Source: Psilocybe cubensis (taxonomy: Eukaryota). Taken from it: a stretch of 64,000 nt of DNA. The notes beneath the pieces were generated by a model. It was not told the origin of the DNA and ran no database searches. It saw only the letters and a list, made by a program, of their open reading frames with translations. How positions within the stretch are numbered: the first letter of the stretch is position 1; each line of letters opens with the position of its first letter. The stretch spans positions 2,294,001-2,358,000 of the forward strand of contig CM039006.1 in NCBI GenBank assembly GCA_017499595.2, in the 5' to 3' direction. A program made the position numbers and the translations under genes. Below, in pieces: positions 5,772 through 61,462 of this stretch.

Positions 5772-5776
5772 ATGAC

Positions 5777-12948: not shown

Positions 12949-12950
12949 TA

Positions 12951-14555: not shown

Positions 14556-14557
14556 TA

Positions 14558-35209: not shown

Positions 35210-36458
35210 AGCATCAGCGACGCGAGATGATATATAATGCGGTCTTACTCACCTGTTCCCACCCAGAGGGCCCTGTCCGTTGGAATGGGGTCGTGGAGTT
35301 GAGTTGGAAGGCGCGCCAGTTATTCTGTAGGTGCGATGTGCCTAGTTGATTAGCATCGTGTAGTGCGCAGAGACAGGAATATCGGCGAATCTGCGAAACC
35401 AGGACGTACAGTAGCCATCTCTTCGGTCTTCGGTTGGCGTCCGTATGGTAGAGCACGTATAATGTCCTACTATACCTCTTGCGCGTCATTGTTCCGTCCT
35501 CATCTCATAGCAGAATAATTCCATTGTACACTAAGCTGATTCATGGACATGCATTGCTACATTACTCAATCTGAATGAGCTGCCTCAGCAGGTTCACCCC
35601 GCCGTACAGCCAGGAGGTGATGGGGACACAGGAAGAAGAAACCGTGAGAATCGGTCCAGCTCGCCAACATGTACCGCAGAAGTTTGATGCCGCTCATGCC
35701 GTCGCCAAATTGGTGATGCGCGTGATTGGTGGCACGGCATCAGCGGCATCAAACTTCTGTCCTGTATCATGGCGATTTTGTGACGGTGTGACGCCTTTCC
35801 ACCTCTCTCTCAACACTCACTCCTATGAAGCACGTCGTACGTAGAGATGGTTCGCATACGAGCTTACTGTAGTAGTAGCACTTTAGTGTAGACTCTAATA
35901 CCATAAACTTAGCTAGCTGCGTACTCTAGTAATACAATTTTAGTTCAAGTGACATAGACCCGGCTTGGAAGGGCAGAGGAAATAGTCGGGTGAGCAACAC
36001 AGAACGAGGAGGAACTACAATTCATTTGGATAGTGAATTACGCAGAAACATAGGTGCGAATAGTATTTGTATTTACTATCAGGCACAAAACACAAGCCAA
36101 AAACACATTCTACAGCACACCCGCCGCCTCTTCGCCTGCCAGACCCGTATTCGAGCGTCACAAACATAGGTGAGGAATCATCTTTGCTATCAGTGCAGGA
36201 AACATATTCTACAGCACATGTGCCGCCTCATTGCTTTACAGACCTCACTTATTCAACGACGCACCCACCTACATTCAAGAATTGAACGTTGAATGCTGCC
36301 ATAACTTTATGTTTTGTACGACGCTGCCTACTGTAAGCACCCGATCTGCGAGGTACCCTCTTTGCAGGTTGCCGTTTTAATTTGGATTTCACGATATCGG
36401 GACTTGTGTAGGATGTGCACATGGCTTCCGTCAACTCTCCTGCTAATGCAACTATATG
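35210..36458 (+). repeat. Non-coding repeat module, copy 1
   Basis: 35630-36458 is a close inverted copy of 53018-54550; 35250-35310 resembles 63468-63527. Confidence 0.85.
35677..35759. other. 83-bp hairpin (26-bp arms, 31-nt loop), copy 1
   Basis: cagaagtttgatgccgctcatgccgt ... acggcatcagcggcatcaaacttctg, one mismatch. Confidence 0.9.
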
Positions 36459-37599
36459 CAAGTCTATTCTCATCTGACACGAGTAACGTAAATATCTCAT
36501 TTACCCCCCCCCCCCCCCCCGTTGCTCTATTGAACCCCACAATTGGGATGACAGCCAGCGCTTTCACATGTTATTTACAACATCCTGATTTAATCAGGGG
36601 CTGCTAGAATTTTCGCTCATTCCGCACCTCGACTCGAGCCATATTTTTGAGAAGTAAGTTCAACCTTACACGCGTGTAGGCAACGCTCGTGTCCTTTCTG
36701 CCTCCGTACTAGTCTCTTGTTTGGTAAAGACCAATATGCTTTCTTACCACCTACATGAGATTATGAATCACCAGTTTCAGCAACGTTAAAAACAGTCGAG
36801 GTGTAATGAGAGCACCGCAAATAAGCTGCCTTATACTGAGAGCGAGCCTGCTGCGCCTTCTTTTCTGTGACCCGCTCGGCCCTGAAGACTCAATGGATGC
36901 ATATAGCACGGAAACCATATATCTGGAAAAGTAGAGACAATGCGGTGTCAGTAGGAATCGTTGGCGTAAAAATACCTGAGTAGAGCAACACGAAGGAGCC
37001 GGCATTTCAGCAAGCATAGGGTATGTCTAATTGCACAGTTAACAAACGTTTGACGGTTTTTATTCGCTAAAACTACATCTGCGCTAGATGATTGACCAGA
37101 TATATCTCCCCGGATCCGAATCTGTGTTGGCACACTGTTTTATTTTCCATTGCTCCTCTTGCGTGTTATCATTCTGTCCTCGTTTCATAGGGACTACATC
37201 TAGTATGTAGACTACATGTTCGACGCCGCTCATGCCGTCGCTTGATTGGTGATTGCGCCAGCATCACATGTCGCCCAATTATCTTATCTTATCGCTGTCA
37301 GAATAGACAAAACAGCAAGAGATCCCTTAAGACTGCCGGCGCAGCGCGATGGCAGGCGCAGAGCGAGACCTGTACTCGGATAATCCAAGGTGGCTTTACA
37401 ATACGGATTGGTTTAACGGGCAGCCTATGATCAGATCAGAGTGGTGAAAGTGTCAAAATGAGTGAAGGCGTTAACAGCCGTGATTCATACGAGTTCTGAG
37501 AACACACCCCCGAGATTGTGTGGTTCAGCAAAGAAACAAAAAGATGATTGAGATATCTGGATATGAAGAGCTGTTTGAATTGCACCAATGCTAACGGAA

Positions 37600-38660
37600 G
37601 GCCACAACATATGTGCTTGTGGGACTCGATGAGAGCCATGAGCAATTCACATAAGATAAACACAGTCCGGCTCGATATGGTGCAATCCAATTAAAACAGC
37701 ACCTGCAAAGGGGGTACCTCCTAGACAGAATGCTTATCGTAAGAAGCATCGCAGAAAAAAATATGGCAGCGTTCTGTGAGTGTGGCGTCGTTTATTAAGT
37801 GACGTCTGTCAGGCGACGAGGCGGCGCATATAGAATATGTTTTCCATACTAGTGATAGCAAGATGATTCTCACCTATGTTTCTGTGTAATTATGTGACCT
37901 CGAATGAAGGACTGGTGGGAGAAGAGGCGGCGCGTATGCTAGAACATGTTTTTGGTTTATCTTCTCTGTACTGATAGCAAAAGATGATTCTCACCTATGC
38001 TTTTGCATAATTCACCAGCACATGAATTGTCATGTTCACCGGTCTTTGAATTAAAGTTATTATGGTGTTAAAATCTACGTTAAAGTATCCCTACCGCTAA
38101 GCTAAATATTTGAATCGAATTTACATTCGACCCGCCGCATTGGAGAGTGGGGGTTGTCAGAGGAAGAAAGGCGTCACACCGTCACAAAATCGCCCTGATA
38201 CAGCACAGAAGTTCGATGCCGCTCAAGCCGTCGCAACATTGGTGATGTGCGTGATTGGTGGCACGGCATGAGCGGCATCGAACTTCTGCGGTACATGTTG
38301 GAGAGCTGGACATATTCCCACGGTTTTCCCTTCTTTCCTGCGCACCATCCTGGCCACGACGTTTGGCGGGGCTGGTGAACCTGAACCTGTCGAAGCAGCA
38401 CGTTGAGATTGAGTAGCGTAGCAATTTATGTACATGGACTAGCGTAGTGTGCAATGTATATAGTACTAGATCAGAGGAAATATTCTGCACGTCAGAGGCA
38501 TGGGGATCATATAGACTCTACCACCCGGTGCGATGTCTAGCGTACGCCCTGGTTTTGTAGGAGGTATGATGCTGCACATTTGGTCAGTTATCCACACAGA
38601 TCCACCTTTAGTGAACAGAACATCTCTTGGTTGGTGAGTCGCAACTCCAGTCTACCCTTC
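37600..38660 (-). repeat. Non-coding repeat module, diverged copy 2 (inverted relative to copy 1); hairpin at 38206-38288
   Basis: Matches 53040-54880 in direct orientation, e.g. aattaaaac.gc..cctgcaaag.gggtacctc, gatagcaaagatgattc.tcacctatgttt, aaaggcgtcacaccgtcacaaaatcgcc, gtcgcaactccagt.taccc. Confidence 0.8.
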
Positions 38661-39022
38661 AATAGCAAAGCACACTGACTGCTTGCGGACCGTCCCGACC
38701 GTCCCAAGGAAAATTACAGACTGCTTGCTGAGCGTCCCTGGAAAAACTACACTCACTTATTTCTTACCGAAGGTGCTCGTTGCACCGTCTGCTTCGTCTT
38801 GCTTCACTTAGGTATATTCGGTACACTCTACGTGCAATTTCTTACAACTATAAACTTAGATTGAGTGCGTCGCAGCAAAGGAGGCCACAGGGCAGCTCTT
38901 AGCACCCACAAGACAGCTCACCTCCTTCCTTATGTTTTTACTCCAAGGTAAGCGTTCATCTCATAGCCGTTTATTAGCTGAAATTTATCGTTTCCGTAAC
39001 AGTACTGCCTAATCCCTACTGT

Positions 39023-39941
39023 CTATTCTGCATCATTGACTCCTGCGATGTTGGCAAGGGCAGCTCGAACCCGAGCGCTTTCCCTCCTCCCCTCGACACG
39101 ACGATGTGCCTCCGCCCTATATTTCAGCTTCAACTTCAACACGCTATGAACTGGCCAACATTTATCGTAATCCCTGAGAACCGGCCAACGCCTAGTTGCC
39201 TACCACGTGTGTCAGCCTTGCTTTTGAGTAGTAAAACAAACTGGTAATTACCTCTTGACATATTGCTTCAATTTTTTCCTTTTTCTGAGATCTGTAGCTT
39301 TTACTCATATCCAGCGACCTCCTTGCTTCTCGGGTGATGTATCCCTACGGACAAAATCAAGGCATCAGTCAAGTATGGTGAGCCACTATTGATTTACATA
39401 CCACCATATCTCCTATATCTTCCTCAGACCAGTGGAAGTCGTCCCTCAGGACTGTCTGGATATTAAACCCACCACTTCCCCGACGGCCAGGTTCTCCCTT
39501 TGGCTTCTTATACATTTCGCCTCCTGGGACCGGCGAAGTCACGCGAGGATGAGAAGGCCCCGCCACTTGGAGGATCATAGCGGGATCAATGGGTTGCCCA
39601 GGATCGACCTGCACATGAGTTGCTGGTGTTGCAATTGAAGGCCCGATTGGAGGGACAGGTACGGTGTCCTGGCCTGAAGGTCCCTCTGCCTGTATGAGCT
39701 CTTCAGGCCCTGGAGCTGCGACGGATGATGGCTGTGGCGCGGCTCCACGCGGAATGGCGTGTCGCTGTAGCAGCTCTGGAGTCCATTGGATACGAGGGGT
39801 AATCTTAGGTAGAGGTTCTTGACTGGGTAAGAGGAATTCGATCCGGGGAGTGATGAGGGGGAGATGACGAATGTATTCGTGTGAAGGATGCGAGGATGAC
39901 ATGGTATATGTCGAGGAAAGATTGTGCGTTTTTCTTTTCAT
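39023..39941 (-). CDS. Three-exon hypothetical protein: Pro-rich N-terminus and KPKGEPGRRGSGGFN...W / YDKCWPV helical domain
   Basis: ORF 39369-39941 spliced to GYITREARRSLDMSKSYRSQKKEKIEAICQE and ATRRWPVLRDYDKCWPVHSVLKLKLKY...* via GT-AG introns with CTGA(C/T) branch sites. Confidence 0.7.
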
Positions 39942-40488
39942 TCACTATTTGTAGTTTCGTATTCGTCGCTCAATCATCCCCTTTGTTTATTCTATGTAAC
40001 GTCTCGCTCTTCCGCAGACACTCATCCTCAGTGTGCACGTCAAATCTCAGTGCACGTCAAATACGCACCAATTGTTTCGCAAAGTCGCTCTGCTAGTGTC
40101 AAAGATTGTTTGATCGATATCTTCTCACCGTAGGGGTAACCATTGATCGCTACCTATCATTCTTTCATCAATATCTATTTCAGGGAGGGCTCAAGAAAGC
40201 ATCATTTGTCTCTACAATGAGTGAAAACCCCAATGACAATATTATCAGACATTGAGCCTTAGTTATACTGAAAATGAGCCTTAGTTCCAATATGAATACG
40301 GTTTGGCGAAAACGTGACAAAAAGGCGACACGACTCAAAGGGAGATGTTATCTTTGACGAGTTATCTGTGACTCGTCAATGGCCAGTGCCAAGGGTGTCA
40401 CAATGACTTCCGGCGGCGCTGGCGGTAAAGTACTTAAAGAGCAGGAGTTATCACCAGTCGTAAACGATTCAAACCATCAGCACCCGCC

Positions 40489-42318
40489 ATGGCAAGTGTA
40501 AGCTTTGCATCCTGTAGTTGTCGCCCGCTGACATGTTCGATAGGAGAATTTCGCAATATTCAGAACATATAAGTTGCCATCCATTCTGCCTATCAACACT
40601 TTATTGTTCTCAGAGGACGCTAGACTCTTAATATCTGGCGGTGAGTCTTTTCCTATCGTCAGTGTTAGGTAATCTTTAATAAGAACAATATCATACTTAG
40701 GAGATGACGAGACGGTATATGTCTTGGACACAAAAACGGGGGAATGCATTCAAACTCTTGAGGATGACAACTGGGGACAAATCACCACAGTTGTCTGGGG
40801 ACAACAGGAGTTACCCAACAGAGAAAACGGCGTTGTGTTATGCATTGGCACGGGGAGAGGGTGTTTGGCGTTGGTTGCGCTAGACTATGATGCCACCAAA
40901 GTACTTCTCTTTCTCGTTTCAACTTCCTGTGTCCTTACATTCTGTATATCATTCCTTAGCCATTCCCAGTAGGCGCGAACACATCTCCTGTATTTGCGTT
41001 CAATGACTCTGTCGAGAAAATGGCTTTCGACAAGCTCAACAATCGATTAGCCGTCACAAGTCACTCCGGTGAGATCAAGGTTTTTGCAGTAAACAACAGT
41101 AAGTACTCTTGTCAATCGCCCTAGCACTCAAACCACACGAATATGGTACTCCTAGCTTCCTTGAGGTTATTGTGGGCCGATAATATTGGCAAAGTGATCA
41201 CCAGCGGCCTATTCTTTTTTGGGGGGTCGAATCAAAGCCTCTTGACCATCGGGTTGGAGACATCGGAAATGTGCGTTGATGTTTCTGTTTCCTTGCAATA
41301 TATTCACGAATTTCTACCACAGGAAGTGCCTCGATGCTTCAAAGAGAGGTCCGCCATTATGGACGAAACATTTGATTGGTGGGATGTACGTGCTACTTTA
41401 TGGAAACCCTCCATTATTTTGATAAATTTTTGAATATTTGACAGTGGAAGCGCGTCTCTGTCCAGCGATGAAACGTTGCTTCTTGTAGACAACCTTGCTA
41501 CCGGTAACTTCGACGTCTATCAGATCGCCGACAACTCCCCTCTTCGTTCCCTGCCAATAGGCTCGACCCGTCGATTTTCCAAGCAATGCGCCTTCTTTGA
41601 AGGTTCGAAAATAGCAGTTTGCGGCAGTGACACCAATAAAGTTTTCATTGTGGATGTCGCAAACAACTATGTTGTTCAGACACTGACAACATGTCGAGGT
41701 TCGACTTTTCGCTTACCTCCGCATTTCAGTTTATTAATTTGTGGACTTAGGTACTTACATGACACAAACGGTCTGTGTTACTCCATCGTCATCGCGCAAC
41801 GTCTTTGTCGCCGCCGCATGTCGTGGCTATGTATATATCTGGGAAAAATCAACTCCTCAAGTCCAGGTAAATGTTTGCGCAGATGACCCTCCCCCTTCGA
41901 GGTACCGTCGCGTTGGATCCGCTATTTTGCCTTACCTGGGATTTGCTGTCGCTGGTACTGTCGGCCATTGGTTACCACACGCCTGGAAGGTGAGCAGCTT
42001 ACAATCCTTTTGGCATTTGACAAACTAATGATATTCAAGTTGGGCCAAGACATAATCATGAAGACTGCTGATTATCTCATCCAGAATGGCGCAGATAGGA
42101 CGATGGAACTTCCAAGAGAAGCTGTTGACAAAATCTTCGAGATGGCGGCAGCGGCCTCGAGGGCTTTGGATATGTCGTCGGCACTGGTGTCGTCGAGGAC
42201 TCTCGACATGGCTGCTATTGCTACAACAACATACACGGCTGCTACTGCAACTGCTACGATGACATCCCCTTCTGCTACCTCTCTTTTTGACATGGCAGCA
42301 GCAGCGGCTGGCCATTAG
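40489..42318 (+). CDS. Multi-exon WD40-repeat protein with hydrophobic / Ala-Thr-rich C-terminus
   Basis: PINTLLFSEDARLLISG-GDDETVYVLDTKTGECIQTL, WGQITTVVW, VTSHSGEIKVF, LLVDNLATGNFDVY, AVCGSDTNKVFIVD, GYVYIWE; about 8 short introns. Confidence 0.8.
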
Positions 42319-42466
42319 AATCTGCATCTGCGTATCCTTCTAATTTGAAACGTGCCCTAGATTTCTTTTGTACATTTATGATATCGGATAATGACATTTT
42401 GCTGAGTAACCTGACTACATGCATCGAAGCTATGATCTACACAGTTTTCCATTATGTTCTCAGTGG

Positions 42467-45400
42467 TCAAAGAATTTGCCTATCTACAGGTCGGAGTCGG
42501 GATAAAGATACACATACAGCGACGTCTCTATCTTCCCATGGGATGATACATTTGGCAAAGTGTCCTTCTACAGCTGAAAAAGGAAGGACTTCGAGGATAT
42601 CTTGGACGTCGGTTCCCCATAGTTTGGCACGAAAATGAACCCACGGGATATAAGGATCGTATTTGACCCCCGCTTCTTGGTATCGATTAACCACAAACCA
42701 TATATCATCCCTAAGTACTTTTTTAGGAAACTTGAGGACATTCTTGATACGGTAGGGCACATTTGACGCATTGAGGACCCCGCTATTGCCTTCATGTACG
42801 TCCCAAGATGTATAAGATATCCGACCAACGCGATAACGGTTTGTATACATTGCCCGCGCGGGCACGGTTGTCACACCATACCGTAAAAATGCCCGAGTAA
42901 TGTCCATCTTTAACACCACCGCACGTCGATCATCGTATGGGATGGCTTCTTCTTGAAGATCTTCTTCGCTTTCCTCGTCGTCTGTCTCAGTGTCATCGTC
43001 AGCCTCAGCATTTGCGACATCGATTGTCTCTGCTTCTCCTGCGAGTATGTACCGTCCTTGGGGCATCACCAACTTGCGAAAGATCGGCCAACAGTCCCGA
43101 ATAGCTTGTGGACATCCTGGTCTTTGAAAAATTGCCATAAGTTTGGACCTTCTGTGCCAGGAAGTCGCAATTGTTTCCTCGTACTCGCCTACTATAGATC
43201 AGTAACCATGAAAGAGCAGGCAACAGGTAAAGCAAATTACCTTGCTTGTAATTTGTGGGAATTCTTTGCAGCATCCCAATCATACGTTCGAAGGGAAACG
43301 TCCACCAACCATGAACAGGCCCATATTCGATGATAAACTCCCTCATATGCATAGCCATATGATGATTAGGAACACACTGGTAGCTTGGAAACAGCCTTGA
43401 AAGCTCGGAACGGTATTGTACCATCAAATTCAGGTATTCATTGGCCATAGCTGGTGATGCGACCCGGGAAGTGATGACAGATATGGCCTCAAAAAGAAGC
43501 ATTGTGAGGCGCAAAAGTTCTCGACGTGTTTGGGCAGGTTTCGAATGGTCAATTCCCGACCATATTCGGATGAGGGTAACTGGGATGTAAAGTGCTGCCG
43601 CAATGCGCCATTGGTCTGATTTGAGTTTTCCACTCTTTGCGGACATCGACCAGGGTAACGACGAGACCCATGACGGTTTTACCATAGCTGCAATGTCTCG
43701 TCGGATGGATTTCATGTCTTCTGCTGTAAGTATCTTTCCCTGCTTGCCATCCACTTCTGAAGTAGCCTGGCTTGACTGTGACTGGCCGAAATTTTTAGTT
43801 GTTAGAAGAATTGAAAAATTTAACAACGTACGGATCTTTCTTTACGCTATTCACCGCGTATTAAACTATCAGATTGATGTTGAGGTAACGACGATGCAGA
43901 CGTACCCATTGAACAAGCATTTGGGCCAGATCTTCTTTCTTGACTCGCATCATACCATTTAACATGTCCCGGCCACGATTGGTGATGGTAGAGGGTATAC
44001 ACCCCAGATGTTTACCAACAAAAACAAGGGCTTCTGCTGCGGTCTTCTTTGCCAACTCGTTTGCTACGTCGGCATCTTCGATTGGAAGAGGCTCTGCCAA
44101 CCATTTTCTGATGATGCGTATTCCTTTTTGACCAGACTCTGAGGTTGGCAAAGGATTACTTTCATTGCCCTCAATGTTTTGTAATATAACGCTATCGCTC
44201 GATATAGGTGTTTGTTGTTTCTTCTTCTGCTTGGGTAAATCAGAACCGTCACCGAGAATGTGCTGAAAATGCTCTTTGATGAGTCCAAGAAAAAGGTTAT
44301 GCATCGGGTCTACAACAAGGCTCATGGTTGGCCGATAATAGGGCAATCGATGAAATTCTGACGTGCGCAATCCGGATTTGTCGAAAAGGCTTGCAGCGGC
44401 CTTTTCGGAGGGGGCTGCCTGGTATTTCCAGGCACCATCTCGACATTCGTCATCGGTGCGCCATGTCCATTTTTCATAATCGAAGTTGTTGAATGTATGC
44501 ACAGTTTTACTACACCAGCACATCGAACAGAAATATTCCTGATTGTATGAAGAAAATCCACCAGCCTTCCGTGCTGCAGGAAGATTGGCGATGATTGCAA
44601 GAAGAGCACAAAGAATAATGCGCCCCATAGCGTAAAGAGCGGTGCGCGTAAAAAAAACACCCACCCAAAACAGCAGGAAAGTGTCAACAATAGGGCGGAA
44701 GTATGGGTTTGCTGCTTCTAGACTGGGTTCATTGGGACCCGGAATAATACCCGCGAGAAAGATGTTTTCAGGTTTATATCGAGTAGTTATGGGAAGGTTG
44801 AGGCATGTTAATGCGATAACTCCAATTGAAATCTTCTTTCCAGCCGTAAGATTACGCAAAGGATTAAAGAAATCAAAGCCGAGTGAAAATAGATAACGTC
44901 CAGTAGTTTCATTTCCGGATACACCGAAAAATTTCTTATCGCATCCCTTGAAGTTACGGATGCTGGAAGACTGAAAAATATCGTCCATGCGCCCATTTTC
45001 TTGAACAGGTTCGAACGTTTTCTTCCAAGCACCGTCCATTGCTTCCTCGTATCCTCGATGCGATAACATGTCACCAAGCCAGTCCTGGAAATCGAATGAT
45101 AGGAAGGGTTTGATGGGTACATTAATGGTCTTATTGCTGTATCTCTTTGGCCGGACAAGAAGTTCCCCACAACGATTACCGAACTTCCGGGCATTGCATC
45201 GTTCGCGATAGGTAGAAATATCGTCCTCTAGGGTTGGCTTGTAGATTTCATTGCACTTTGGACAAGCGGCATACACGATGAACTTCGAATCAATGTCAAA
45301 ACGCTTGATTGCCGCTCGAACGTCTAGAGGAAACGAACGAAGAACTTGCTCGAGCCAACGAGGAAGGATTTTGTCGACAAAGATAGCCTCTCCCGTTCTT

Positions 45401-46300
45401 TGAGCGATATATTCGCACATGGAAAAGACAAAATAGCATCCACGTCGAGGAAACCTCAATATAGCGTAGCAAGAAACAACCATAAGGTTGATCATCTGCA
45501 TCGCGTCAATTATCCATGGGGGTAGCCAAGGCATACTGTATGCATAGGGAAGGAAGGGAAGGAAGTGGTGCCCTAGGGTCGATAGTTGATAAATAGTTCA
45601 TCGAATACAAAGTGAAAAATAAACATGCTCGCTCACTTGAATCGTATAAATTAGGTACGCTATCCTGAATAGAAACTCGCTGGCGAGATCTCTTCGTTTG
45701 CCTCTCCTTCCATGTTGCCTCTACACGGTCTACATCTTCATTAAGTCGCTCGATATTTTGGTGTGCATCATGTCGCAAAGATTTGATCGAGGCTTCCTTG
45801 CGCAAAGGACCGGATTTCGTAAAGTCTAAATCTCTCGATGCGTTGGAATTAAGAGCTCGTACTTCATGGCAAAGTTGAATTGCCTTATCAATTTCCCCAT
45901 TGCTGAAATATTTCTCTCCTGACAGGTCAATGGTGTTGATTTGTTGGGCACGAAGTCTGGTATTGTCTAGAATATCTGCAATCAGAGCCACGATTTTTTT
46001 CTTCTGTTCGTGCTTGTACTGCACTTCCTTTTCCTTGATCGTCTCGGTGTCCGGGTCCTGAACAGATAAAAGTTGCATTGCTTTCTCCAAGGTGGTTTCG
46101 ACCTTCTCCATGGCCCTTTGCTGCTCAAGGATCGCCCGTGATTCAAGATTCCTCTTCATCTGACCCACGCTTTCCTCGTGTTGGTGCTTTTTATATGTAG
46201 ATGGCGACAATTGAACACCTGGCTGTCCTGTGACAGGATCGCGTTTCGCGCCGCACCCATGCACAGTGCACAGGCAAAACTTGGCTTTCCAAACCGGCAT
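42467..46300 (-). CDS. CACTA/En-Spm (TnpD / Transposase_21-like) transposase, multi-exon; the second catalytic Asp appears as Asn
   Basis: CLCTVHGC N-terminal exon; CPKC..C..C; LGFDFFNP, CLNLP...ENIFLAGIIPGPNEP, ANLPAARK..GF..FCSMC, VDPMHNLFLG, KLKSDQWR, PNHHMAMH..YGPVHGWWTFPFERMIG. Confidence 0.9.
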
Positions 46301-46831
46301 AGGTCTGTCGAATCAACCAGAATATCGATATCGATGTGGTAACGGTTAAGCAATGATAAGAGAAATTTTACCACATGAGAAATTATTATGCGATCACGCA
46401 GCTGCAGCTGCAGCGGAGGCAATGACCCGGAGGAACTCGATAAGGTGATGTCGCCGAAACGCCGAGGCATAACAAAGGGACTGAGCGATGAAAGACTAGC
46501 GTTTTCTTTTAAAGCGCTTGTTCAGGAACTTTCTTCATTACCCTCACCTTCCAAACACCCAGCACAACTGAGTCTAGTCGTCCAACTAAACTATGTCTCA
46601 ACCTTCCAGGAGTCGTAGTAACAGCAAATCATCTGTAACAGGGGCTACCCCAATATATACCGCGATGCTTTCCCGCGAACACTATATAAAGGCTGTTAGC
46701 GCGAGATCAAGAAAGAACGCAGGGGTAAGTTGTCTAAGGATTGATTGAGGCGCATTTTTCAATGATACATTACCTTCTGTAAGAAGTCTGCTTCGAGGCA
46801 ACGCCGGTCTCCTGAAGCAGGGGACGCTAGC

Positions 46832-48152
46832 ATGGTGGCAGGGCCATCGAGATTCCAGGAAGTTGATGATGACGACATGGACCAATCCTTTGAATCCAAT
46901 TCAACTGCGTTAGTCACCAACACCTTGACGTCCAACAAAACCCAGGCTGCGGTGCGCTTGAGTATAATGATTTATGTATTTCAATCTGACAGTACATACT
47001 TTCACCAGGGGAGTATTCAAAGGGCCTACACGGCCCCAATGGTCTCGTCCTTTGCCAAGAACCGTGAGGTTTCCACCGAAGGTCCATCGACAGAGATTGC
47101 GAATGTGTCGGTGGATGCTGGGAGAGACAATCTTATGACCAGACGTCCTCCTATACAGGTGGCCAACGTGAATGCTATATTAGCCATACTCCCAGGCCGG
47201 AATGAATTGTTTCCCGCCGTTCAACATAACCGATCTATTGCCAATGGATCGTATGCAGCATCCACCAATGTCCAGAATGATCGAGGCATAACCAATCAAC
47301 AAAGCGGAGTGGATGCTGGGATAGACCAAGTGATCATTAGTCAAGTACGCCACGATCATACGCCGTCGACTTTAGCACTAATCAACTACTTTCGATGAAC
47401 AGGATGAATATGACAGGCTGAAGTCCACTTCAAATGCTGCAAGGTTGAGAAGTGATGATATAATAGCGACCGTAAGAATAATGAAATGATTCATAAGGCA
47501 GCGACTTACATCTGCATCCATTTTCCAGGTTAGAGAAGTTCAAGCCGACAGGGAGCGCATTGCCGCCCTTGAGCGAGGTCTAACCGAGCAGGGAGAGACG
47601 TTTAAATGGGTTAGTTTGGTTTCTTCCCTCACATAACCTTATGACGTTTATCCGAGACCGTCACACTTTTTAAACAATTATATTATAGGAAATTGACAAA
47701 GCGAGCAAGATGTATACTGAGCTCTTGAAGGAGAAGGTGGCCCAGGAAAACCTGTACCTTGAAACGAAGAGGGTAAATTTACAATATGACCGATATCGAT
47801 AATGTTAATGACAAATTTAAATAGGAAAATGACAGGTTGAAGGAGCTGGAAGAGACAGTACTTGGATTCGCAAAATGCACAATTTGCTATGAATTTATGG
47901 AGCAAATTTGCGTGTAAGCCTTTTCGAGAACTGTGTTTACAGATCAAAGTGACCTCAGAACATTATCACAGCTTTGCTTGTGGTCATGTTTGCTGCAACG
48001 ATTGCAGGACAAAGCTTGAGTTATTTGACACACTGAGGTGCTGCTTTGTATGCCGCACATTTGTTCCAGATGAACAACCCCTCTCGCGTTACCATCCCCT
48101 CAGCCAGATTCTGTCCAATGTAAAGGATAAGGCTAATGCAGAGGGTGTTTAG
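46832..48152 (+). CDS. Multi-exon protein with coiled coil and C-terminal C3HC4 RING finger
   Basis: Spliced KCTICYEFMEQIC-V-FACGHVCCNDCR...RCCFVCR gives the full C-C-C-H-C-C-C-C pattern. Confidence 0.75.
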
Positions 48153-48296
48153 AGTAATCCTACTCCCTCTGCACGCTGCAGCTTCTGTTCGAGGTGATCA
48201 TATAAGTATATAGCAAATGAAGAATGTCATGTTTCATACCAGAATTTATATTATCTTCACAAGACGAGGTGATGGTAGAGAAATACCAAAAACAGG

Positions 48297-51200
48297 TCAC
48301 AGTATCTTTTTCTTGTACTGGTCTTTTAACTGAGTCATAACATTGGAGTTGAGGTCTCTGTCTTTCTTGGACTCGGGAACTGAACACAGGAAATCCGTGC
48401 TGAGTATAAATCGCTCGCCAGTTAAAACGTCTACACGATCTTTAGATCGGGTGACTACAGCGACCAAGACAGTTGGATTATCCGAGGTGCCTTCATGATG
48501 AATGCGACGAACGAATTTCCCGCAATGTTCCCCCTTGATAACCACTAGAGGCCCATTGTCATGTATTCGATTTGCATACTTCGGAGTGACCCAAGCGGGG
48601 TCCACCATAGTCCATGAACTGTACTTTTTGCACCTGAGTACGAGGTTGTTTGCATCCCAAACCGTTGAGGCGACTAATGTTTTATTGCTGAACTGTCCGC
48701 CGTTGACTACCACATTCAGGCTGATGTCCACCAGTTTGGGGTTTAAGAGAACATGTTCGCACACAGAAGAGGAAGTCGTATGACAGTTTGTTTCAGATGA
48801 GGAGGAAACAGATGTAGAGACGTCTGATAACGCAAGACTTGTTGGCGAATGAGCAGTTGGGTCAGGTGTCCTTGAGGAGGGGTCCCAAGCTGGAGTGATA
48901 GATTGCGGTGTACCGATGGGTGTCCTTGAGGAAGGATCCCAGGCTGGAGTTGCAGTGGGTTCTGAGTACATCGGTGTGCCGCTCACTGACGCAATCGTTT
49001 GCGGTACGCCAGGGAGAACGCGGACGTGCTTCATGGAAGACTTAGGTATAGGACGGAAAAATTTTGGCCCAGGATCAAGGAAAAGAACGAGCTCATTGAA
49101 CGTCCTTGCGTACAAGTTAGACAGAGGGTACATGCAATGACAACACACTTACGAAAGTTCGACGACATCGTCATAGTCCACAACGATTGTTTGGAACGGT
49201 GCAAAGGGATTAAAACGGGTGAGTTGAATAACGAGCTGCAGTCCGGCGTTGTCTGTATGATGAAGGACGTCTTTGATTTGTCCAGTCTCACCCTTGCGTG
49301 GGTGAAGATGCTTCTGTATAATGACCTCTAAACCAGTCCATGGGTGTCTTAAAAACTTGGTGTGGACTGGGTCTGACTCCGACAATAATGTCACATCGAC
49401 AAGAGGTAGGGGCTCAGTAAATGAAGTGTCCAAGAGATTGACGTGTACCGCAAAATGCTGTTGAAAGGTATAGCCACGTTAAGAGAAAAACCGGTGAATA
49501 TGTCAAGCTGCAAATTTACTCACTTCCACAATCTCAACCTTGTTATCATCTCCTACCCCAGAATTAAACTGGTTAGATGCTGCTGTTGTACTGACCACAG
49601 CGCCCTGGTTGTACGACTCCTGAGCTGCTGTTGGTTTTCCTACTCCTGTGACACACGAACTCCCTCCCGGCATCGACATTTCTTCTTCATCTGACGTTGC
49701 TGCTGATTCATCCAAAGTTAGAGCGATATCCGAATGCACCATTATACCCCCTGGCATCATTTGCGCTTCTACCGCCGTCCCCAGATCTGTCTCCGCCGAA
49801 CCTTTTCTCAGATCATCGTTCCCTGTCGGCACGGGATATTGTTCTTTTCCGTTGGTGGGCGTCGAAGATGTTTCAGCATTTGTTTCCACAATGGAAATGC
49901 GACCATGCACCGAACTTTTCGTTATTAGTGCATGGTCTCCATGGATTCCAACGACCCAACCTCTGTGATCGAAATAGGGGCCGCTCACAACTCGAACGAA
50001 TTGCCCGATTTTTGGTGACTTGAGAATGTCTAGCCATGTTCCCCTAACACTGTAGCGGATTTCACGTTCACCTTCGATTGTTGATTGTTCTGCTTCAACG
50101 TCGTATGTGTCCAGCTTTTTCAGCACTGCAGGTTCCCACTTTGCAGACCGATTCGCAACGTCGGGTGTACGAAAAAGAACCTCCTCTTCCAGTCCTAAGC
50201 ACCATTCCCGAGGACGTGGCATACGCGCTCGCATTATGTCGGGATGATTGGTGCTCCTAAACATGGAGAAGTGGGAATACGGAATATCCATGACGGAATT
50301 TGCGATGGAGGTATAGTCGAAATCCTTTTCCAACAGTCCATGGTCAAACTTGAGAAGTCCAAGCGTGTATGATCCATCCGCATTGCGAATAATGGGAGTA
50401 GAAATGAGTTTGCGGGCTTCTTCAGGGTCGAAAAGTTTTGCTGGGGGTACTAGTACCGATGACTTTCTCTTTTGTGACTTTGCAGATTGCGAATTTAGCC
50501 GAGGAATGAGAAGAACCTGAGCGCCCCAGGAAAAAGTCGCTGAAATCAGTCCAACGTCTCCTTTGTATATGCCTTTCTTAACCAAAACCCAGGTCCCAAC
50601 CTCAAAATCCTTCTTGACATCCCTCATCGTAAGAAGTTCGTGCTGATGGTTCCGATCCACTATTTCGCGCTTGACTCCAAGGTGGTTACGAAGAATTCCG
50701 GGCGTGGACAAGAGCAGATTCACGAGGGCTGGATCCATGATACCTTCAACGTAGATACTTCCGCGTATAGAGCCGCGAGTAAATGCGGAACGAATATGGT
50801 GGATCTCCCTTGCGGTCTGGAGAAGGGATAGGACAGCTGCATCCTCAGAGCCGATCTGCAAAAGTTGATAGAAAAATAATCAAGGGATAGGTATTCAGAC
50901 TTACCCGACATCCAACCCTCCAGAGAGGATAGTCATTCTCAAGCGGAAGACGCGCAATCTTCTCCTGGAGCATGGTTATCCTATCTTCCTCCTCCAAACG
51001 TATAACCGGACGTGGTTGACGAGGGCCCTTTGCTTGAGCCTCCAGGCGAGCCAGTAGTTGGTTAAATGAATCCTCCTCGCTGTCATCTTCTGGCCTATGG
51101 AACGCCATAGAGCCTATGTGATCTTCCCCGTCCACTTCCGCTCCGTCGTTAATGAAGGCATCTGTAAAGACAGTCAAATCAAGTCTATCGCAACATTCTG

Positions 51201-51383
51201 GACAGCTCGCCTTCAAGGTCCCGTTCTGCAGACGTAAGCTGCTCATCGTCAGAAAGCTCTCCATCATCAGCTACCTGTGCCTCCGTGTCCAGAAATTGGC
51301 GGACGTTCCTCATAACCTAGGGAGAAAAAATCATGAGTATCAAGATGCTTTGAACAGAAATCAAGCAAGCCTACCCGCTTCAT
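48297..51383 (-). CDS. SPT5: Spt5-like transcription elongation factor paralogue (acidic N-terminus, NGN, several KOW, TPAW CTR repeats)
   Basis: FLDTEAQV..FIND; PLWRVGCR-IGSE..SAFTRGSIRGSIYVEG; VGTWVLVKKGIYKGDVGLI..LIPRL..PPAKLFDP; IGQFVRVVSGPY; WTGLEVII..RKGETGQIKDV; TPAWDPSSRTP x2; LVVIKGEHCGK. A paralogue, not necessarily the host orthologue. Confidence 0.85.
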
Positions 51384-52639
51384 CCTTTGGACTGTGTCGT
51401 TCGATGGAAATGAACAAATTTAATTAGATGATCAGTTACCACTCTGACTTAGGAATCGGAATCTATATGACGTTGGTGTGCTCAGTAAGTTTTTTTCATC
51501 TTCATTACGATGGTGATCTCATTTTCATTTTCCAACTATCCAAATCTATCACTGAACTACGTGTAATAGTACATATTCTCGTTCCGGTTCAACGCCAATG
51601 CAGAATCCGTGGCGTATCTTACCTGGAATGACAGCCCCTGAGCAACGAGGAGACAAAACGGTATGGTGGAGAGAAGAAGAAAAAGAGCGTGGGAATGGGT
51701 GGGGGGCTGTAGAAATGGCGCAGAAGTTCGATGCCGCAAATGCCGAAACATATCACGTGTTAATGTTCCTCGGGCATCCCGGGTGTGGATGAGGGTTCAA
51801 AACATTGAGAGCTGAGCGTCGTGCTGAAACTTATCAATGCGGAAGCGCTCATGTGAACACTTAAGCTCGTATCCTGTTAAAAATGCATGGTGAAACCTAT
51901 TGTAGGGAACCTAGATGATGGAGCGACACGAAGTAGTCGGCTCGTCCTGAATGAAAAATTCATAGAAAATGGACATAATAAATTATTGACATGACCGTTG
52001 AGACAACTCTTCCAGAATAAAATTTAGGGGCAGAACCAAGGGGCACACCGTTAGTTCCATCAAAAACCAAGGCACAAGTTATGTATGGCGTACCCAGGTC
52101 TATGCTACCGCGAAACTAAGTATTTCGTTGCTTGCATATTCAAAAGTACGTACTACAGTTTACAAACAGTGGGAAATCAGCTACTCTACAAGAGTCTCAG
52201 GTGTTTGTATTTCCGAAGGAAAATAAGCACATTCAAATAATCTTGTAGTGAGCGGCGACCTTAGCATTTTGTGAGCCCAATAATTCGAGTATCAACGGTA
52301 GATATATTTGCGTGGAAAACGGTAAAAACAGACGAGGCCGTACTTCCAAGGACCCGCAGAAATAAGTTAAGGAGAACATCCTGGTTCATTGATCCAATCA
52401 TGTAGATAGGGTCACCATGACACTGTAATAGAAGAAGCGCGGTTGTAAAAATACAGGGCCAAGTCCTCAATAACGAATATGTGAAACATACAAATTAGGC
52501 ACCTTGTCGTCGAAGTCGACAGATTTGCGGGCCACGTTGCGGTGTCTACCACAACCTTTGCGATAATAAACATGGATAAGCTCGTACAGTTAGTGAGCAA
52601 TGCAGAGCGGTGATGAAGCTCTACACATAATATGTCACT

Positions 52640-52970
52640 GAACATCTCGTGTTCGTGAGAGTAAATTCGGCTTACAGTACGTGTAAAACAATACCTCACG
52701 GCGATTCGAGTTCGAGGGTGAAGTGGGCGCTGGGCAATGGCCGTGTTAGATTGTTGAACGAGATTTTAAACCACCCACTGGCAGGACAAAATGGGGTTGG
52801 AAAGTCACCGAAGATTATTATATCAAGTAGAGCTTGGGTTAATAAATTTAGTATATCAATTGCAGATATTGATGAAGCGACATACTTCATAGATTGAAGA
52901 GAATTATTAGACGGGAACATCTCGCGTGTTCGAGAGAGTAAATTTGGCTTACAGTACGTGTAAAACAATT
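52640..52970 (+). repeat. ~55-bp direct repeat pair
   Basis: gaacatctcg..tgttcg.gagagtaaatt.ggcttacagtacgtgtaaaacaat at ~52640 and ~52915. Confidence 0.8.
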
Positions 52971-53017
52971 GAGACTGGTGCCGCTCGAATACCTGATAGA
53001 AAAAAGACGGAGCCAAT

Positions 53018-55788
53018 CTATAGTTGCATAAGCAGGAGACTCGACGGGAGCCATGTGCAAATCCTGTATATTCCAAGTCCCGATATCGTGAAATCCAAAT
53101 TAAAACGGCAACCTGCAAAGAGGGTACCTCGCAGACCGGGTGCTTACAGTAGGCAGCGTCGTACAAAACATAAAGTTATGGCAGCATTCAACGTTCAATT
53201 CTTGAATGTAGGTGGGTGCGTCGTTGAATAAGTGAGGTCTGTAAAGCAATGAGGCGGCACATGTGCTGTAGAATATGTTTCCTGCACTGATAGCAAAGAT
53301 GATTCCTCACCTATGTTTGTGACGCTCGAATACGGGTCTGGCAGGCGAAGAGGCGGCGGGTGTGCTGTAGAAGGTGTTCTTGGCTTGTGTTTCCTGCCTG
53401 ATAGTAATAAAATACGATTCGCACCTATGTTTCTGCGTAATTCACTATCCAAATGAATTGTAGTTCCTCCTCGTTCTGTGTCGCTCACCCGACTATTTCC
53501 TCTGCCCTTCCAAGCCGGGTCTATGTCACTTGAACTAAACGTTCAATTCTTGAATGTAGGTGGGTGCGTCGTTGAATAAGTGAGGTCTGTAAAGCAATGA
53601 AGCGGCACATGTGCTGTAGAATATGTTTCCTGCACTGATAGCAAAGATGATTCCTCACCTATGTTTGTGACGCTCGAATACGGGTCTGGCAGGCGAAGAG
53701 GCGGCGGGTGTGCTGTAGAAGGTGTTCTTGGCTTGTGTTTCCTGCCTGATAGTAAATAAAAATACGATTCGCACCTATGTTTCTGCGTAATTCACTATCT
53801 AAATGAATTGTAGTTCCTCCTCGTTCTGTGTTGCTCACCCGACTATTTCCTCTGCCCTTCCAAGCCGGGTCTATGTCACTTGAACTAAACGTTCAATTCT
53901 TGAATGTAGGTGGGTGCGTCGTTGAATAAGTGAGGTCTGTAAAGCAATGAAGCGGCACATGTGCTGTAGAATATGTTTCCTGCACTGATAGCAAAGATGA
54001 TTCCTCACCTATGTTTGTGACGCTCGAATACGGGTCTGGCAGGCGAAGAGGCGGCGGGTGTGCTGTAGAAGGTGTTCTTGGCTTGTGTTTCCTGCCTGAT
54101 AGTAAATAAAAATACGATTCGCACCTATGTTTCTGCGTAATTCACTATCTAAATGAATTGTAGTTCCTCCTCGTTCTGTGTCGCTCACCCGACTATTTCC
54201 TCTGCCCTTCCAAGCCGGGTCTATGTCACTTGAACTAAAATTGTATTACTAGAGTACGCAGCTAGCTAAGTTTATGGTATTAGAGTCTACACTAAAGTGC
54301 TACTACTACAGTAAGCTCGTATGCGAACCATCTCTACGTACGACGTGCTTCATAGGAGTGAGTGTTGAGAGAGAGGTGGAAAGGCGTCACACCGTCACAA
54401 AATCGCCATGATACAGGACAGAAGTTTGATGCCGCTGATGCCGTGCCACCAATCACGCGCATCACCAATTTGGCGACGGCATGAGCGGCATCAAACTTCT
54501 GCGGTACTTGTTGGCGTGCTGGCCATATTCTCACGCTTTCTTCTTCTTCTGTTCCAACCATGCTCATCTAGCGGGTGAAGTAGCACATATAGACCGAGTA
54601 GCGCTGCTATCCATGTAGGCAGTCTAGCGTAGTGTACCATGTAAATAATACAAATACTACTACAGGGAGCGAAATGGGGACCGAATGATATTGTGCGTGA
54701 GGTGTAATCGAAGTGCCAACACAGATGTTAAGCACGTATGAGATCTCTACGCTCGCCGTAAGTAACACAATTTTCTGCACAGTGTTGTATATTGGGTCAG
54801 TCATTCAGCGCAGATACAGGTCAGCGAACAAGACATCGCAAAAGTTTCGAAGCATGTCTGGTAAGTCGCAACTCCAGTGTACCCGCCGTTTGCTAACCAT
54901 GCGATTAGACGCACACGATTCTCACTCAAGTCGTTCGTTTCACCATTTCCTTCCTCTTGTTCTACACAGGTATGTTTCGTTCTGTCTACCTAATTTTCTG
55001 TAGTAACTTACATAGTATAGCCCATCTCCTATCCCGAACACCAACGATCCGCACTATGCGCTATTAAGCAAACAAGATCCCGGACTTGTCATCGTTCGGA
55101 TACCGGTGTTCCTTCCAACTCAACTCCACAACCCCTTTTGCACGGATAGGGCCCTCTGGATGGGAATAGGTTATCAGAATTGCATTGCATGATGTGTAGA
55201 GCGCGTATACGCAGACGTATGACTGGGTAAGTCTGTTTACGTCGCATGTCCCATGGCATTCGCTGATATACCTGACAGACCCTGATTCCCATATCCTCCA
55301 TGCACATTGCGCAGGTGGATGACATTCGCATCCTTCTCTCTGTGCAGAACGAGCATCGCTGAGAGTGCACGATAAAATACCAATCAAGTAAGTAGCAGGT
55401 TCACTTACCTTGACGCTTCCACTGATTTGCCACATCCAAACTTTGGCTAGCAAGTCGTCGAACCTGGATGGCCAGCGAGGGGTCCATCGTCGCCCGACAC
55501 GAACGCATGTACTTCAGTCGTGGAGACGTGTAGGCTCGAGCGGGAAACTGGGGCAACATTAATGTACGTGGCTGAACGAAGACGGCTGCGCACAGTACTC
55601 ACTCCTCACACAGAGTTGCAACGCCCGTCCTTTGCTGTGTCCTCTCCATTCCATCGGTTGCATCAACGTTTTAGGGCAAACCATGACATATACAGAAGGT
55701 CATCATTTCGCGAGAGTACGTTTTTCGTCTTCTGTCTCTCTTTCTTAAGCACCAGGTTTTGATCTACAACTTCTCCTTAGCACGCTAT
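53018..55788 (-). repeat. Non-coding repeat module, copy 3 (longest); hairpin at 54419-54501
   Basis: Left part is inverted against copy 1; right part (54636-55788) is inverted against 62848-64000. Confidence 0.9.
53191..54238. repeat. Tandem triplication of a ~350-bp unit
   Basis: Units start acgttcaattcttgaatgtagg at 53191, 53539 and 53889 and are nearly identical; a single inverted unit sits at ~35940-36290. Confidence 0.95.
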
Positions 55789-58700: not shown

Positions 58701-59071
58701 TTTTCGAGGTCTCGAACTCGTGCGTTAAGCGTTTTAATTTGCTCACTGCGCTTTTCACGCACAGTTTGGAGTTCTGAAGCGAAAACATTCTCGCGATGGC
58801 TTGATAATTATTGTGCTTGAATCAATTTCTCCCTTTTGCTGTCAGACTCCTGGAGACGAGCCTGTAAGTCACCAATGCGATTTTCAAGTTGCTGGGCATG
58901 AGAGGTTGACTCCTCCCTGGACTTCTTCAGTTCTGCAGTCTTCGCGTCTAGATCGTTGTTGAGTTGAACGATACGGTTCTCTCTGTCGATACCATCAGTT
59001 AACTGTCCCTCAAGCTCCTGAACAGCACGCGTTAGCCTTGACGACTCCGCCTTCTGATCCTTCAAATCAGC

Positions 59072-60590: not shown

Positions 60591-61462
60591 GCTATCTGAG
60601 CCTCATAAGCAGTTATTTGCTCCGTAAACGCCATATTCGAATCCTCGAGCTCCTTGATATGGGACGTGTCCTCTTCCAAGATATTGGACCCCTCTCCATT
60701 GGGTTCATTTAGCAATATTTTCGCAGTTTCTGATTCTTCAAGACTGTCTTCCACCAGAGATGAAATCTGAAGAGACTGGGATTCAACCTTTTTGTTTAAT
60801 TCCTCCACCGTACGGTCATGATGAATTTGGAGTTCTTCGATTTGTTGTTTGAACTTTGCTTCCAGCTTGAAAACAGCTAGCAATGAGAGGCTGATGCTTC
60901 TGATTTTTGGTAGACTACATACCTCAGACATTTCGTGCTCTTTAGCACGGGATGCTTCTTTATGTTGGCGATCCACGTCCTGTTCGATGCTTAAACGCAG
61001 GTACGATAACATGAAGCCTGGGAAACGTACTCGTTTATAGTCTTCGAATTGGGATTGTAAGGTCTTATATGCCCCATCAGACGCCGATTTCTCTTTGGAT
61101 ATCTGGATGATACATTACTATTAGTACATATATCTTTCCAATAATCAAAGTCTCAACCTTTTGCTCTACAACGCGAAGGTGTCGAATTTCAGCATCTTTC
61201 AAATCGTTGACGCTCGGCTCTATGCTCTGAAGGCGCTTTATTTCTTTATCCTTCGATTTGAGCTTCTTAGTCAACTCATCAACCTTGAATACAACGGTAT
61301 GTTGAGTTAAAATTTGAGACGGCAATTGAAGTGAGTTACCGCGAACTCGAGTTCTTGAAGATACTCAGGCTCGACTGCAATTAACTTTCTCGACGATATC
61401 TCTTCATGATCACTCCTTTTTCGCTTGCCCGATTCTTGTGGTTTGAGAATCTGGGACTGTAA

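Follow-up and report, generated by a model that had tools for sequence, protein, structure and literature searches.

What is a gene for Spt5, a component of the core RNA polymerase II (Pol II) elongation machinery, doing beside a transposase? The question is raised by a 64,000-nucleotide (nt) stretch of Psilocybe cubensis DNA (GenBank assembly GCA_017499595.2, contig CM039006.1, positions 2,294,001 to 2,358,000 of the forward strand; hereafter the window, whose own coordinates are used throughout), in which a six-exon, Spt5-like gene occupies 48297..51383 on the minus strand, with its ATG at 51383 and its stop at 48297. To our knowledge, no transcription factor apart from Spt5/NusG is conserved across every domain of life, and eukaryotic Spt5 is regarded as a single essential host gene of which specialised, host-encoded paralogues are rare. 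A preliminary description of the locus took it for a transposon-embedded Spt5 paralogue with a near-complete domain architecture. The analysis reported here indicates that the gene is very probably a transposon-resident Spt5 paralogue under selection. A fuller reading, in which an intact and diverged paralogue, distinct from the host SPT5, resides in a Tnp2/EnSpm-type (Plavaka-like) DNA transposon and acts on the transcription of that element, is the best explanation at hand and is put forward tentatively.

The first step is the identity of the protein. A phmmer search against all solved chains matched exclusively Spt5 proteins, headed by 8qsz_Y (expectation value, E, 1.4e-17) and including Komagataella Spt5 (~1e-13), the plant protein RDM3/KTF1 (8hyj_W, 2.2e-11), and human SPT5 (~1e-6); the alignment spans the FLD-EAEV motif, NGN, KOW1, and KOW2-3, with the TPAW repeats aligning separately. 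When a profile of 12 family members was compared by hhalign with a profile of three canonical-type Spt5 proteins, the two matched at a probability of 100% and E 1e-39 over 524 columns. Given these two E values, the resemblance to Spt5 far exceeds chance. An AlphaFold2 model built from a 91-sequence family alignment has a predicted local distance difference test score (pLDDT) above 90 at 472 of 948 residues, with confident blocks at residues 121-455, 575-700, and 795-948 and predicted disorder in the acidic N-terminus, at 458-570, and in the C-terminal repeat (CTR) region at 703-793. Searched with Foldseek, its best 24 matches are all SPT5 chains in Pol II complexes (~1e-18 to 1e-11).

The architecture is near-complete: behind a predicted acidic N-terminus, NGN and the KOW1-linker are followed by three more KOW barrels, a CTR-like stretch of two repeats, and a tandem resembling KOW6-7. 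Its folded and repeat-bearing parts are as follows.

50622..50932, minus strand: NGN domain, residues ~124-212 of the public model P0162, split by the 49-nt intron 50904-50856
50259..50606, minus strand: KOW1-linker1 domain, residues ~218-333, a structural match to 4ytk
49917..50195, minus strand: two KOW/Tudor-like barrels, residues ~355-447, profile-aligned to canonical KOW2 and KOW3, pLDDT >90
49153..49346, minus strand: further KOW-like barrel with HPWTGLEVIIQKHLHPRKGETG, residues ~616-680, confident beta-strands at 622-678
48864..48956, minus strand: short CTR-like region with two TPAWDPSSRTP repeats, residues 730-760
48372..48758, minus strand: C-terminal tandem barrel, like KOW6-KOW7 of human SPT5, residues ~796-924, pLDDT ~95

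The preliminary description had listed an acidic FLD.EA.V N-terminus, an NGN domain, several KOW motifs, two TPAWDPSSRTP repeats, and a C-terminal KOW-like motif, and every one of these features is found in its place on the minus strand. At the N-terminus, FLDTEAQV aligns to the canonical FLDVEAEV, and 33 of the first 125 residues are D or E; the Pfam Spt5_N model exceeds its cut-off solely in the relative P0126 (25.4 vs. 24.2) and not in the window protein, whose frame in this region depends on splicing. Pfam searches place both NGN and the generic KOW above their cut-offs: PF03439 NGN scores 24.7 bits against 22.4 in the 948-amino-acid (aa) public model P0001, and PF00467 KOW scores 31.8 bits against 22.3 at residues 418-443, with further barrels besides. 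NGN is likewise matched at 28-38 bits in seven of the eight relatives scanned, P0122 giving no match, and the NGN region of the AlphaFold model superposes on the yeast Spt4-Spt5NGN structure 2exu with Z 11.7 and a root-mean-square deviation (rmsd) of 1.8 over 85 residues. The SPT5-specific models KOW1_SPT5 (17.5 bits, cut-off 22) and KOW5_SPT5 stay below their cut-offs; by structure, KOW1-linker1 aligns to 4ytk over 109 of 116 residues (VIA-align, Z 13.6, rmsd 2.1). In the barrel at residues ~616-680, W618, K627, K633, and G634 are at least 90% conserved among family members, and relatives show weak KOW5/KOW2 Pfam matches at the corresponding position. The two TPAWDPSSRTP repeats (residues 732-742 and 750-760, window ~48950-48864) align with the TPAWNSGS-type repeats of the 8qsz Spt5 chain; across 12 family members A752, P755, and P760 never vary, and W753 is kept in at least 90%. 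The Pfam CTD model reaches 17.1 bits there, short of its 25.4 cut-off, and canonical proteins have many more repeats. The C-terminal KOW-like motif, PLVVIKGEHCGKFVRRIHH, is present, and the tandem to which this end of the protein folds aligns to 5ohq over 104 of 110 residues (VIA-align, Z 11.3, rmsd 2.2).

Set beside canonical eukaryotic Spt5, the large subunit of DSIF, the window protein is colinear through a predicted acidic N-terminus, NGN, KOW1-linker, KOW2, KOW3, a later KOW, and CTR-like TPAW repeats. It differs in being only ~23-26% identical to four canonical-type sequences and falling in a separate clade, in having just two CTR repeats, in carrying a disordered insert of ~110 residues (458-570), and in that KOWx, KOW4, and KOW5 lie below the Pfam cut-offs, whereas all three are matched in the canonical P0154 and P0173. 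Unlike the canonical gene, moreover, its own is multi-copy and transposon-borne, with several lineages per genome. The C-terminal 130 residues superpose on KOW6-KOW7 of human SPT5 (5ohq), which are also placed after the CTR, albeit at 18% identity. The canonical-type fungal proteins P0154 and P0173 have no Pfam match past KOW5 and the CTD repeats, and the post-CTR tandem of the Spt5-like family may be ancestral or regained.

How this protein is read out of the DNA depends on one unusual splice.

51383-51375, 51316-51211, 51161-50905, 50855-49524, 49457-49153, and 49104-48297, minus strand: the six exons of the Spt5-like gene, encoding 938 aa plus stop
51162..51210, minus strand: putative, predicted GC-AG intron of 49 nt within the part encoding the acidic N-terminus, with GCGAGC as its first and TTTACAG as its last letters

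One long exon, 50855-49524, accounts for 444 aa. The N-terminus begins with MKR, followed by a 58-nt intron and then VMRNVRQFLDTEAQVADDGELSDDE; with this intron removed, FLDTEAQVADDGELSDDE begins 27 nts past the ATG. Downstream of FLDTEAQV come a second acidic motif, FIND-GAEVDGED, and the opening of NGN with YPLWRVGCR. The preliminary description had noticed no premature stop in its spliced model. This stands if the GC-AG intron 51210..51162 is removed, which leaves a joined frame of 2817 nts that is open up to a single terminal stop; left unspliced there, the frame encoding FLDTEAQV runs into a TAG at ~51186. Removal of the intron yields the junction ..ERDLE/DAFIND.., colinear with the paralogue P0151 (..SAERDLE, then DAFINDGAE..), and the resulting protein is identical to the public model P0162 from DAFINDGAE through the C-terminus. 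Two public annotation sets deal with the TAG differently: one (948-aa models) bypasses it with a 19-nt GT-AG “intron,” implausibly short for fungi, and the other (938 or 928 aa) uses a 49-nt GT-AG intron and skips the acidic stretch. Because the GC-AG alternative reproduces the P0151-like junction exactly, matches the remaining introns in size (58, 49, 66, and 48 nts), and keeps the frame open, the six-exon model appears the likeliest, and the deposited N-termini of five P. cubensis loci are probably wrong.

The second step is to ask whether the gene truly belongs to a transposon. A transposase had been noted 2 kb away, and indeed its first open reading frame (ORF) starts at 46312, 1985 nts downstream of the Spt5-like stop and on the same strand. 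The relevant features are these.

42467..46312, minus strand: transposase gene of the Tnp2/EnSpm (CACTA) kind, in four overlapping ORF pieces
35672..54506, no strand: repeated unit of ~18.8 kb, a putative whole transposon, delimited by depth and inverted arms
35672..36456, plus strand: left terminal inverted arm, matching the reverse complement of 53019-54647 at 92-98% identity
53019..54506, minus strand: right terminal inverted arm, containing three 350-bp tandem units at 53190-54239
35677..35759, no strand: 83-bp palindromic end module of the 17-mer CAGAAGTTYGATGCCGC, with other copies at 54419-54501 and 38206-38288

The transposase assignment derives from PF02992 (Transposase_21), which matches ORF 43861-45597 at 34.1 bits against a cut-off of 28.6 (E 2.1e-8). 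The inverted arms, 97-99% identical, flank both the transposase and the Spt5-like gene. Five bases inside either end of the unit sits one of the 83-bp palindromic modules, with the third lying internally and a single extra 17-mer at 51721-51737. Altogether the 17-mer matches seven times in the window, always within the unit, where 0.01 matches are expected and none of 100 shuffles reaches seven. These modules have the look of subterminal repeats and may be putative transposase-binding sites. A joint linking 51681 to 35675, with 39 letters between, was considered as an element end and set aside, since it proved to be a variant, in a paralogous copy, of the internal 17-mer at 51721.

Copy number was gauged from public DNA aligned to 35001-55000, comprising two raw-read runs (X12 and X13) and one contig set (X1). 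Depth is elevated evenly over 35668-53676 in both runs; per bin over 37002-52342 it is ~125-187 in X12 (mean ~153) and ~105-161 in X13 (mean ~140), as against ~0.1 in the left-flank bin. With single-copy depth estimated at ~38-40 (letters read divided by the ~43.5 Mb of X1 contigs), this amounts to ~3.5-4 copies. In X1, contigs of the element have depths of 215-238 and the left-flank contig, which ends at 35715, has 36.4, a ratio of ~6 that, summed contig depth being no copy number, was used solely alongside the five annotated loci described below. The unit is thus present in about 4-6 copies per genome. The transposase, the Spt5-like gene, and all the sequence that separates them show the same even depth and have therefore been amplified as one unit, which supports the view that a transposon harbors the gene. 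At 95% likeness the left flank, 35001-35667, is nearly absent from X12 and X13; the insertion site or its surroundings are therefore not common to those strains. Copies and strains also vary structurally, with deletions of 407 and 169 nts near the left arm (36735-37143 and 36847-37017) and, in the right arm at 53405-54105, loss of two 350-bp units, one contig skipping 699 nts.

What kind of element this is can be judged from its transposase and, less cleanly, from its ends. The name Plavaka, like KDZ, was reportedly first given by Iyer and colleagues in 2014. The left junction reads ..CAACA followed by TGTACCGCAG and the right junction CTGCGGTACT followed by TGTTG, with a palindromic GTAC at both that could be a duplication or part of the repeat. 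Termini of TGT..ACA and CATCA..TGATG are described for Plavaka A and B in the part of the source used here (Kojima, PMC12730594); against these, the left end fits the TGT of Plavaka and the right end has no clean fit. By its sequence the element is accordingly classed as Tnp2/EnSpm-type and Plavaka-like, with no claim as to subgroup. Beyond the junctions, the flanks are ~80% inverted-similar, and the right flank, from 54508 onwards, is a repeat of still higher copy number. The highest-copy stretch within 35001-55000 is 54478-55000, with a contig depth of ~820. Two more ORFs inside the element draw sub-threshold Pfam hints: a possible beta-propeller (WD-like) gene at 40673-42318 on the plus strand and, also on the plus strand, a small ORF at 47841-48152 that is Cys-rich and RING-like and separates the Spt5-like gene from the transposase. 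A Pfam scan of 23 further small ORFs in the unit gave no match above cut-off and, below it, weak beta-propeller and RING hints, and no scanned ORF of 36400-53175 matched the TET/JBP families.

Is the gene nonetheless simply the SPT5 of its host? At 90% identity the window protein falls in a cluster of ten records, all >99% identical, whose variant patterns pair one to one; by this pairing, the ten records are five loci, each annotated twice. The five NCBI records sit on five separate contigs of 3.05-4.68 Mb, the window copy corresponding to models P0158/P0162. Only ~7 amino-acid positions vary among the five copies, and the frame is kept in all of them. Beyond this cluster, P. cubensis has P0151, at 73% identity, and a group at several loci, at ~40% (P0003, P0164, P0166). 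With five near-identical copies and at least six diverged Spt5-like genes, the locus cannot be the genome's only SPT5, one of the findings that would have undone the preliminary description. The gene also departs from the one-copy-per-genome pattern of a host SPT5 orthologue, being multi-copy, inside an amplified unit, and separate from the canonical-type clade. These sequences are already public under the name “Transcription elongation factor SPT5,” where the transposon nature of the genes is not stated; studies of orthology or of gene families in mushroom genomes can be misled by that label.

The family extends well beyond one species. An exhaustive HMMER search with the 444-aa exon as query returned, as representatives of 50%-identity clusters, 508 sequences at E <=1e-3, of which the weakest may include canonical Spt5, with 198 at <=1e-10 and 64 at <=1e-30. 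All named members come from mushroom-forming fungi: Psilocybe cubensis, P. cyanescens, Flammula alnicola, Pholiota conissans, Panaeolus cyanescens, Panaeolus papilionaceus, Dendrothele bispora, and Armillaria novae-zelandiae, all of which we take to be Agaricales. Panaeolus cyanescens alone has at least six paralogues, each representing its own 50%-identity cluster. In a maximum-likelihood tree of 36 rows, obtained by a quick search, the 32 family members separate from the four canonical-type sequences, both clades having an SH-aLRT of 100; the gene is thereby placed in an old, diversified Spt5-like family that spans several mushroom genera and stands apart from canonical Spt5. Within that family, paralogues of one species are spread across deep branches, a scatter that resembles transposon lineages. 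Twelve full-length members, 23-77% identical to the window protein, share invariant or near-invariant residues in NGN, KOW1, PAWDPSSRTP, and the GEHCGKYVRRIHH of the C-terminal tandem, and even the full-length members at 23-43% identity retain every domain together with the PAWDPSSRTP and GEHCGKYVRRIHH motifs. Because members only 23-35% identical keep long open frames, domain order, and confidently predicted folds, there is indirect evidence that the Spt5-like proteins are under constraint. A search for Spt5-like/transposase fusion models among proteins of 2262-5000 residues found none, a size range that makes the search uninformative.

A scan of metagenome contigs with an alignment of seven closer sequences gave eight loci, seven of them distinct (L001 lies within L002), and just two of the distinct loci, L008 and L001/L002, extend at least 2.5 kb past the downstream end of the Spt5-like gene. 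L008 carries its Spt5-like gene at 452-3669 and, downstream on that strand, a Tnp2 transposase at 4504-8298 (PF02992, E 7.5e-9), which matches the window transposase at 30% over 429 aa (E 8e-53) and at 34% over 165 aa (E 4e-27). Its Spt5-like gene is ~24-28% identical, has family members as its best matches, keeps the ..GEYVRRIHH motif, and contains an in-frame stop at 2752-2754 between two ORF pieces. In the tree L008 branches off basally, with the window copy placed in the crown of the family. That the same order recurs in two members from the two extremes of the tree suggests, in a small sample, that Spt5-like gene and transposase have long been associated. The remaining metagenome loci, with short downstream stretches, adjoin hAT or Copia remnants. 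None of the window's WD-like, RING-like, coiled-coil, and X ORFs has a tblastn match at 1e-3 in the eight loci. L002 equals L001 except for a 1.95-kb insertion (5517-7467) with an RNase H ORF, an insertion polymorphism between two metagenome samples that lies beside the Spt5-like gene.

What, then, might such a protein do for the element? From the predicted fold, it would bind elongating Pol II at the Spt5 site, with NGN over the cleft and KOW1 on the upstream DNA, its partner probably being the host Spt4. On polymerases transcribing the element it would displace the host Spt5, so that transcription of the transposase might stay processive in copies that the host has methylated or packed into heterochromatin, and the two conserved TPAW repeats could serve as a minimal docking platform for readers of the phosphorylated CTR. 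The specific proposal that the element-encoded Spt5 makes Pol II on the element resistant to host termination, heterochromatin, or methylation, which is drawn by analogy, is possible but doubtful. The working analogy is to the specialised NusG paralogues of bacteria, such as RfaH and the plasmid- or island-borne ActX, TraB, and UpxY. Like the window protein, these belong to the NusG/Spt5 family; they are encoded by or for horizontally mobile DNA, and they act on its own transcription against Rho or H-NS silencing; the NGN of the window protein matches NusG folds at Z 10-12. Unlike the RfaH-type proteins, which consist of one NGN and one KOW and are recruited by ops, the window protein keeps the full multi-KOW body of Spt5.

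A second precedent comes from the same group of elements. In the sections of PMC12730594 used here, TET/JBP dioxygenases are described as cargo of fungal Kyakuja/Dileera/Zisupton, Plavaka, and EnSpm elements, with escape from methylation silencing as the proposed role. The likeness is that basidiomycete DNA transposons, those of the Plavaka/EnSpm group among them, carry an accessory chromatin or transcription gene next to their transposase; the Spt5-like cargo differs in protein family and chemistry. The main text of that article contains neither Spt5 nor KOW, NusG, or elongation as a word. Full-text literature searches turned up no account of a transposon-encoded Spt5, an earlier passing mention in Iyer et al. 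2014 or in supplementary files being possible.

Pressure from host silencing can be looked for in the mutations of individual copies. The window copy has 30 near-fixed private differences in the unit (35996-54493), a tally that rests on 40 of 305 variant rows; 24 of them are G:C to A:T changes, and 20 of these 24 fall at CpG. Among the minority variants of the reads, C>T and G>A are the most frequent (137 of 211 in X12). The observed/expected CpG ratio is 0.93 in the unit and 0.13-0.21 in older AT-rich repeats at 1-5700 and 14600-23900. The private mutations bear the apparent signature of methylated-CpG deamination, or of a process like repeat-induced point mutation, on individual copies, and the element is young and probably methylated by its host. 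These CpG-biased mutations are the sole circumstantial support for the proposed anti-silencing role.

Several observations weigh against the reading of an intact, transposon-resident Spt5 that acts on element transcription. The frame stays open only if the non-canonical GC-AG intron is removed or either of two alternative, likewise awkward splices is used, transcription and splicing are predicted from sequence, and binding of Pol II and Spt4 is deduced from a predicted fold. Because its flanks are inverted-similar and the right one is a higher-copy repeat, the unit may be part of a larger or composite element; its exact termini and target-site duplication were not found, and no empty-site joints occur among the public reads and contigs aligned to 35001-55000. 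The linkage, too, is incomplete, in that a transposase lies downstream in one of the two outside loci with at least 2.5 kb of downstream sequence: in L001/L002 the downstream ORFs are DUF6698, the RNase H-bearing insertion, and DUF6548, with no transposase. The tree comes from a quick search and has long basal branches. Finally, the canonical SPT5 of P. cubensis is absent among the 7 and 11 proteins returned by two word-based searches; its existence is inferred from the universality of Spt5.

Of the other explanations, the one that survives best, though it is unlikely, is again an analogy, in which the Spt5-like protein would act as a tether between Pol II, elongating or paused, and either the transposase or the excised element, and would so direct integration or excision towards transcribed DNA. 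Spt5 is known to bring AID to paused polymerase in B cells. The retention of NGN and KOW1, the Pol II-binding modules, and the preservation of the transposase-adjacent order in two very distant members would suit such an adaptor, and the conserved C-terminal tandem barrel could bind a partner. That KOW6-7 tandem is also found in human SPT5, however, and so is not necessarily a new partner module, and contact with the transposase is purely hypothetical.

Quite unlikely is the idea that the gene is an inert passenger, a host SPT5 captured once and carried along without serving the element, in the manner of Pack-type gene fragments. CACTA-type elements do capture host genes, the gene is known here as sequence only, and both the odd splice required in the N-terminal region and the in-frame stop of L008 count in its favor. 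The capture is whole-length, however, and not a fragment, its predicted domains fold with pLDDT >90, and domains, motifs, and long open frames are kept in many species down to 23-25% identity. Neutral decay to such divergence would have destroyed the frames, and it is on this ground that the passenger is discounted in favor of a paralogue kept by selection.

A role on the side of silencing is improbable. By analogy, the paralogue would here support non-coding transcription that feeds small-RNA or methylation pathways, as a host tool, or a decoy for one, in repeat-rich DNA. Specialised Spt5 paralogues for non-coding transcription are documented, as far as the excerpts used here extend (PMC3111484, PMC5416832). 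In the same partial accounts, plant SPT5L/KTF1, which works with Pol V in RNA-directed DNA methylation, and the meiosis-specific Spt5m of Paramecium offer the likeness of a second Spt5-family protein for special, transposon-connected transcription; the phmmer match to RDM3/KTF1 and the CpG-mutation signature of the window copy point the same way. Those paralogues, however, are described as host genes in single or few copies, whereas the Spt5-like gene has been amplified with the transposase as a unit on five contigs, the behavior of a mobile element rather than of a host regulator, and several deeply diverged lineages coexist within single genomes such as that of Panaeolus cyanescens. Nor is there an equivalent of the long GW/WG platform, the Argonaute hook, attributed to KTF1 in those excerpts: GW or WG occurs only twice in the 948-residue window protein (positions 244 and 433), each time inside a folded domain.

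Lastly, that an ordinary host paralogue adjoins a transposon by chance is highly improbable, for while adjacency alone means little in a window full of unrelated Copia, Tc1/mariner, and Gypsy remnants, this reading is already contradicted by the copy number, raised evenly across gene, transposase, and arms, by the five near-identical loci on five contigs, and by the same synteny in L008.

Should the preferred reading of a transposon-borne, functional Spt5 paralogue hold, an old lineage of eukaryotic cut-and-paste transposons would encode an elongation factor for Pol II, and mobile elements could thus supply part of the core elongation apparatus themselves. Bacterial mobile DNA has its RfaH-type NusG paralogues, and such a protein would be their first equivalent in eukaryotes; it would also represent a second anti-silencing strategy next to the transposon-borne TET/JBP enzymes. 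The family would further offer several hundred diverged, trimmed-down Spt5 variants, with two CTR repeats and altered middle KOWs, from which to learn what each part of Spt5 is needed for.

The rest of the 64-kb window is a repeat nest. On the left are a Gypsy/Tf2-like remnant (4743-5090), a Copia-type retrotransposon (5777-12192) whose 242-nt long terminal repeats are 98% identical, and two Tc1/mariner copies (12947-14557 and 23940-25550), 98% identical to each other and with 213-nt inverted ends. On the right, 54636-55788 and 62848-64000 form a 99.9% identical inverted repeat of at least 1153 nts that is cut off where the window stops. Within the 7 kb that it encloses lies a long coiled-coil ORF (58811-61114), which itself contains repeats of 177 and 849 nts; the ends of the inverted repeat at 55788 and 62848 were considered as element termini and rejected, no terminal motif being found there. 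Two ORFs in this region recall extensions of Spt5-like proteins. One, 56440-57300 on the minus strand, is weakly like the C-terminal extension of Panaeolus cyanescens P0015 (E 2e-5, 20% over 192 aa); it has no Pfam match and is possibly a further gene travelling with the Spt5-like family. The other, 62083-62454 on the plus strand, shares 49% identity with an N-terminal extension found in P0153, an Spt5-like model of P. cyanescens; this extension also heads the P. cubensis model P0166 and appears as an ORF directly upstream of the Spt5-like genes in related elements.

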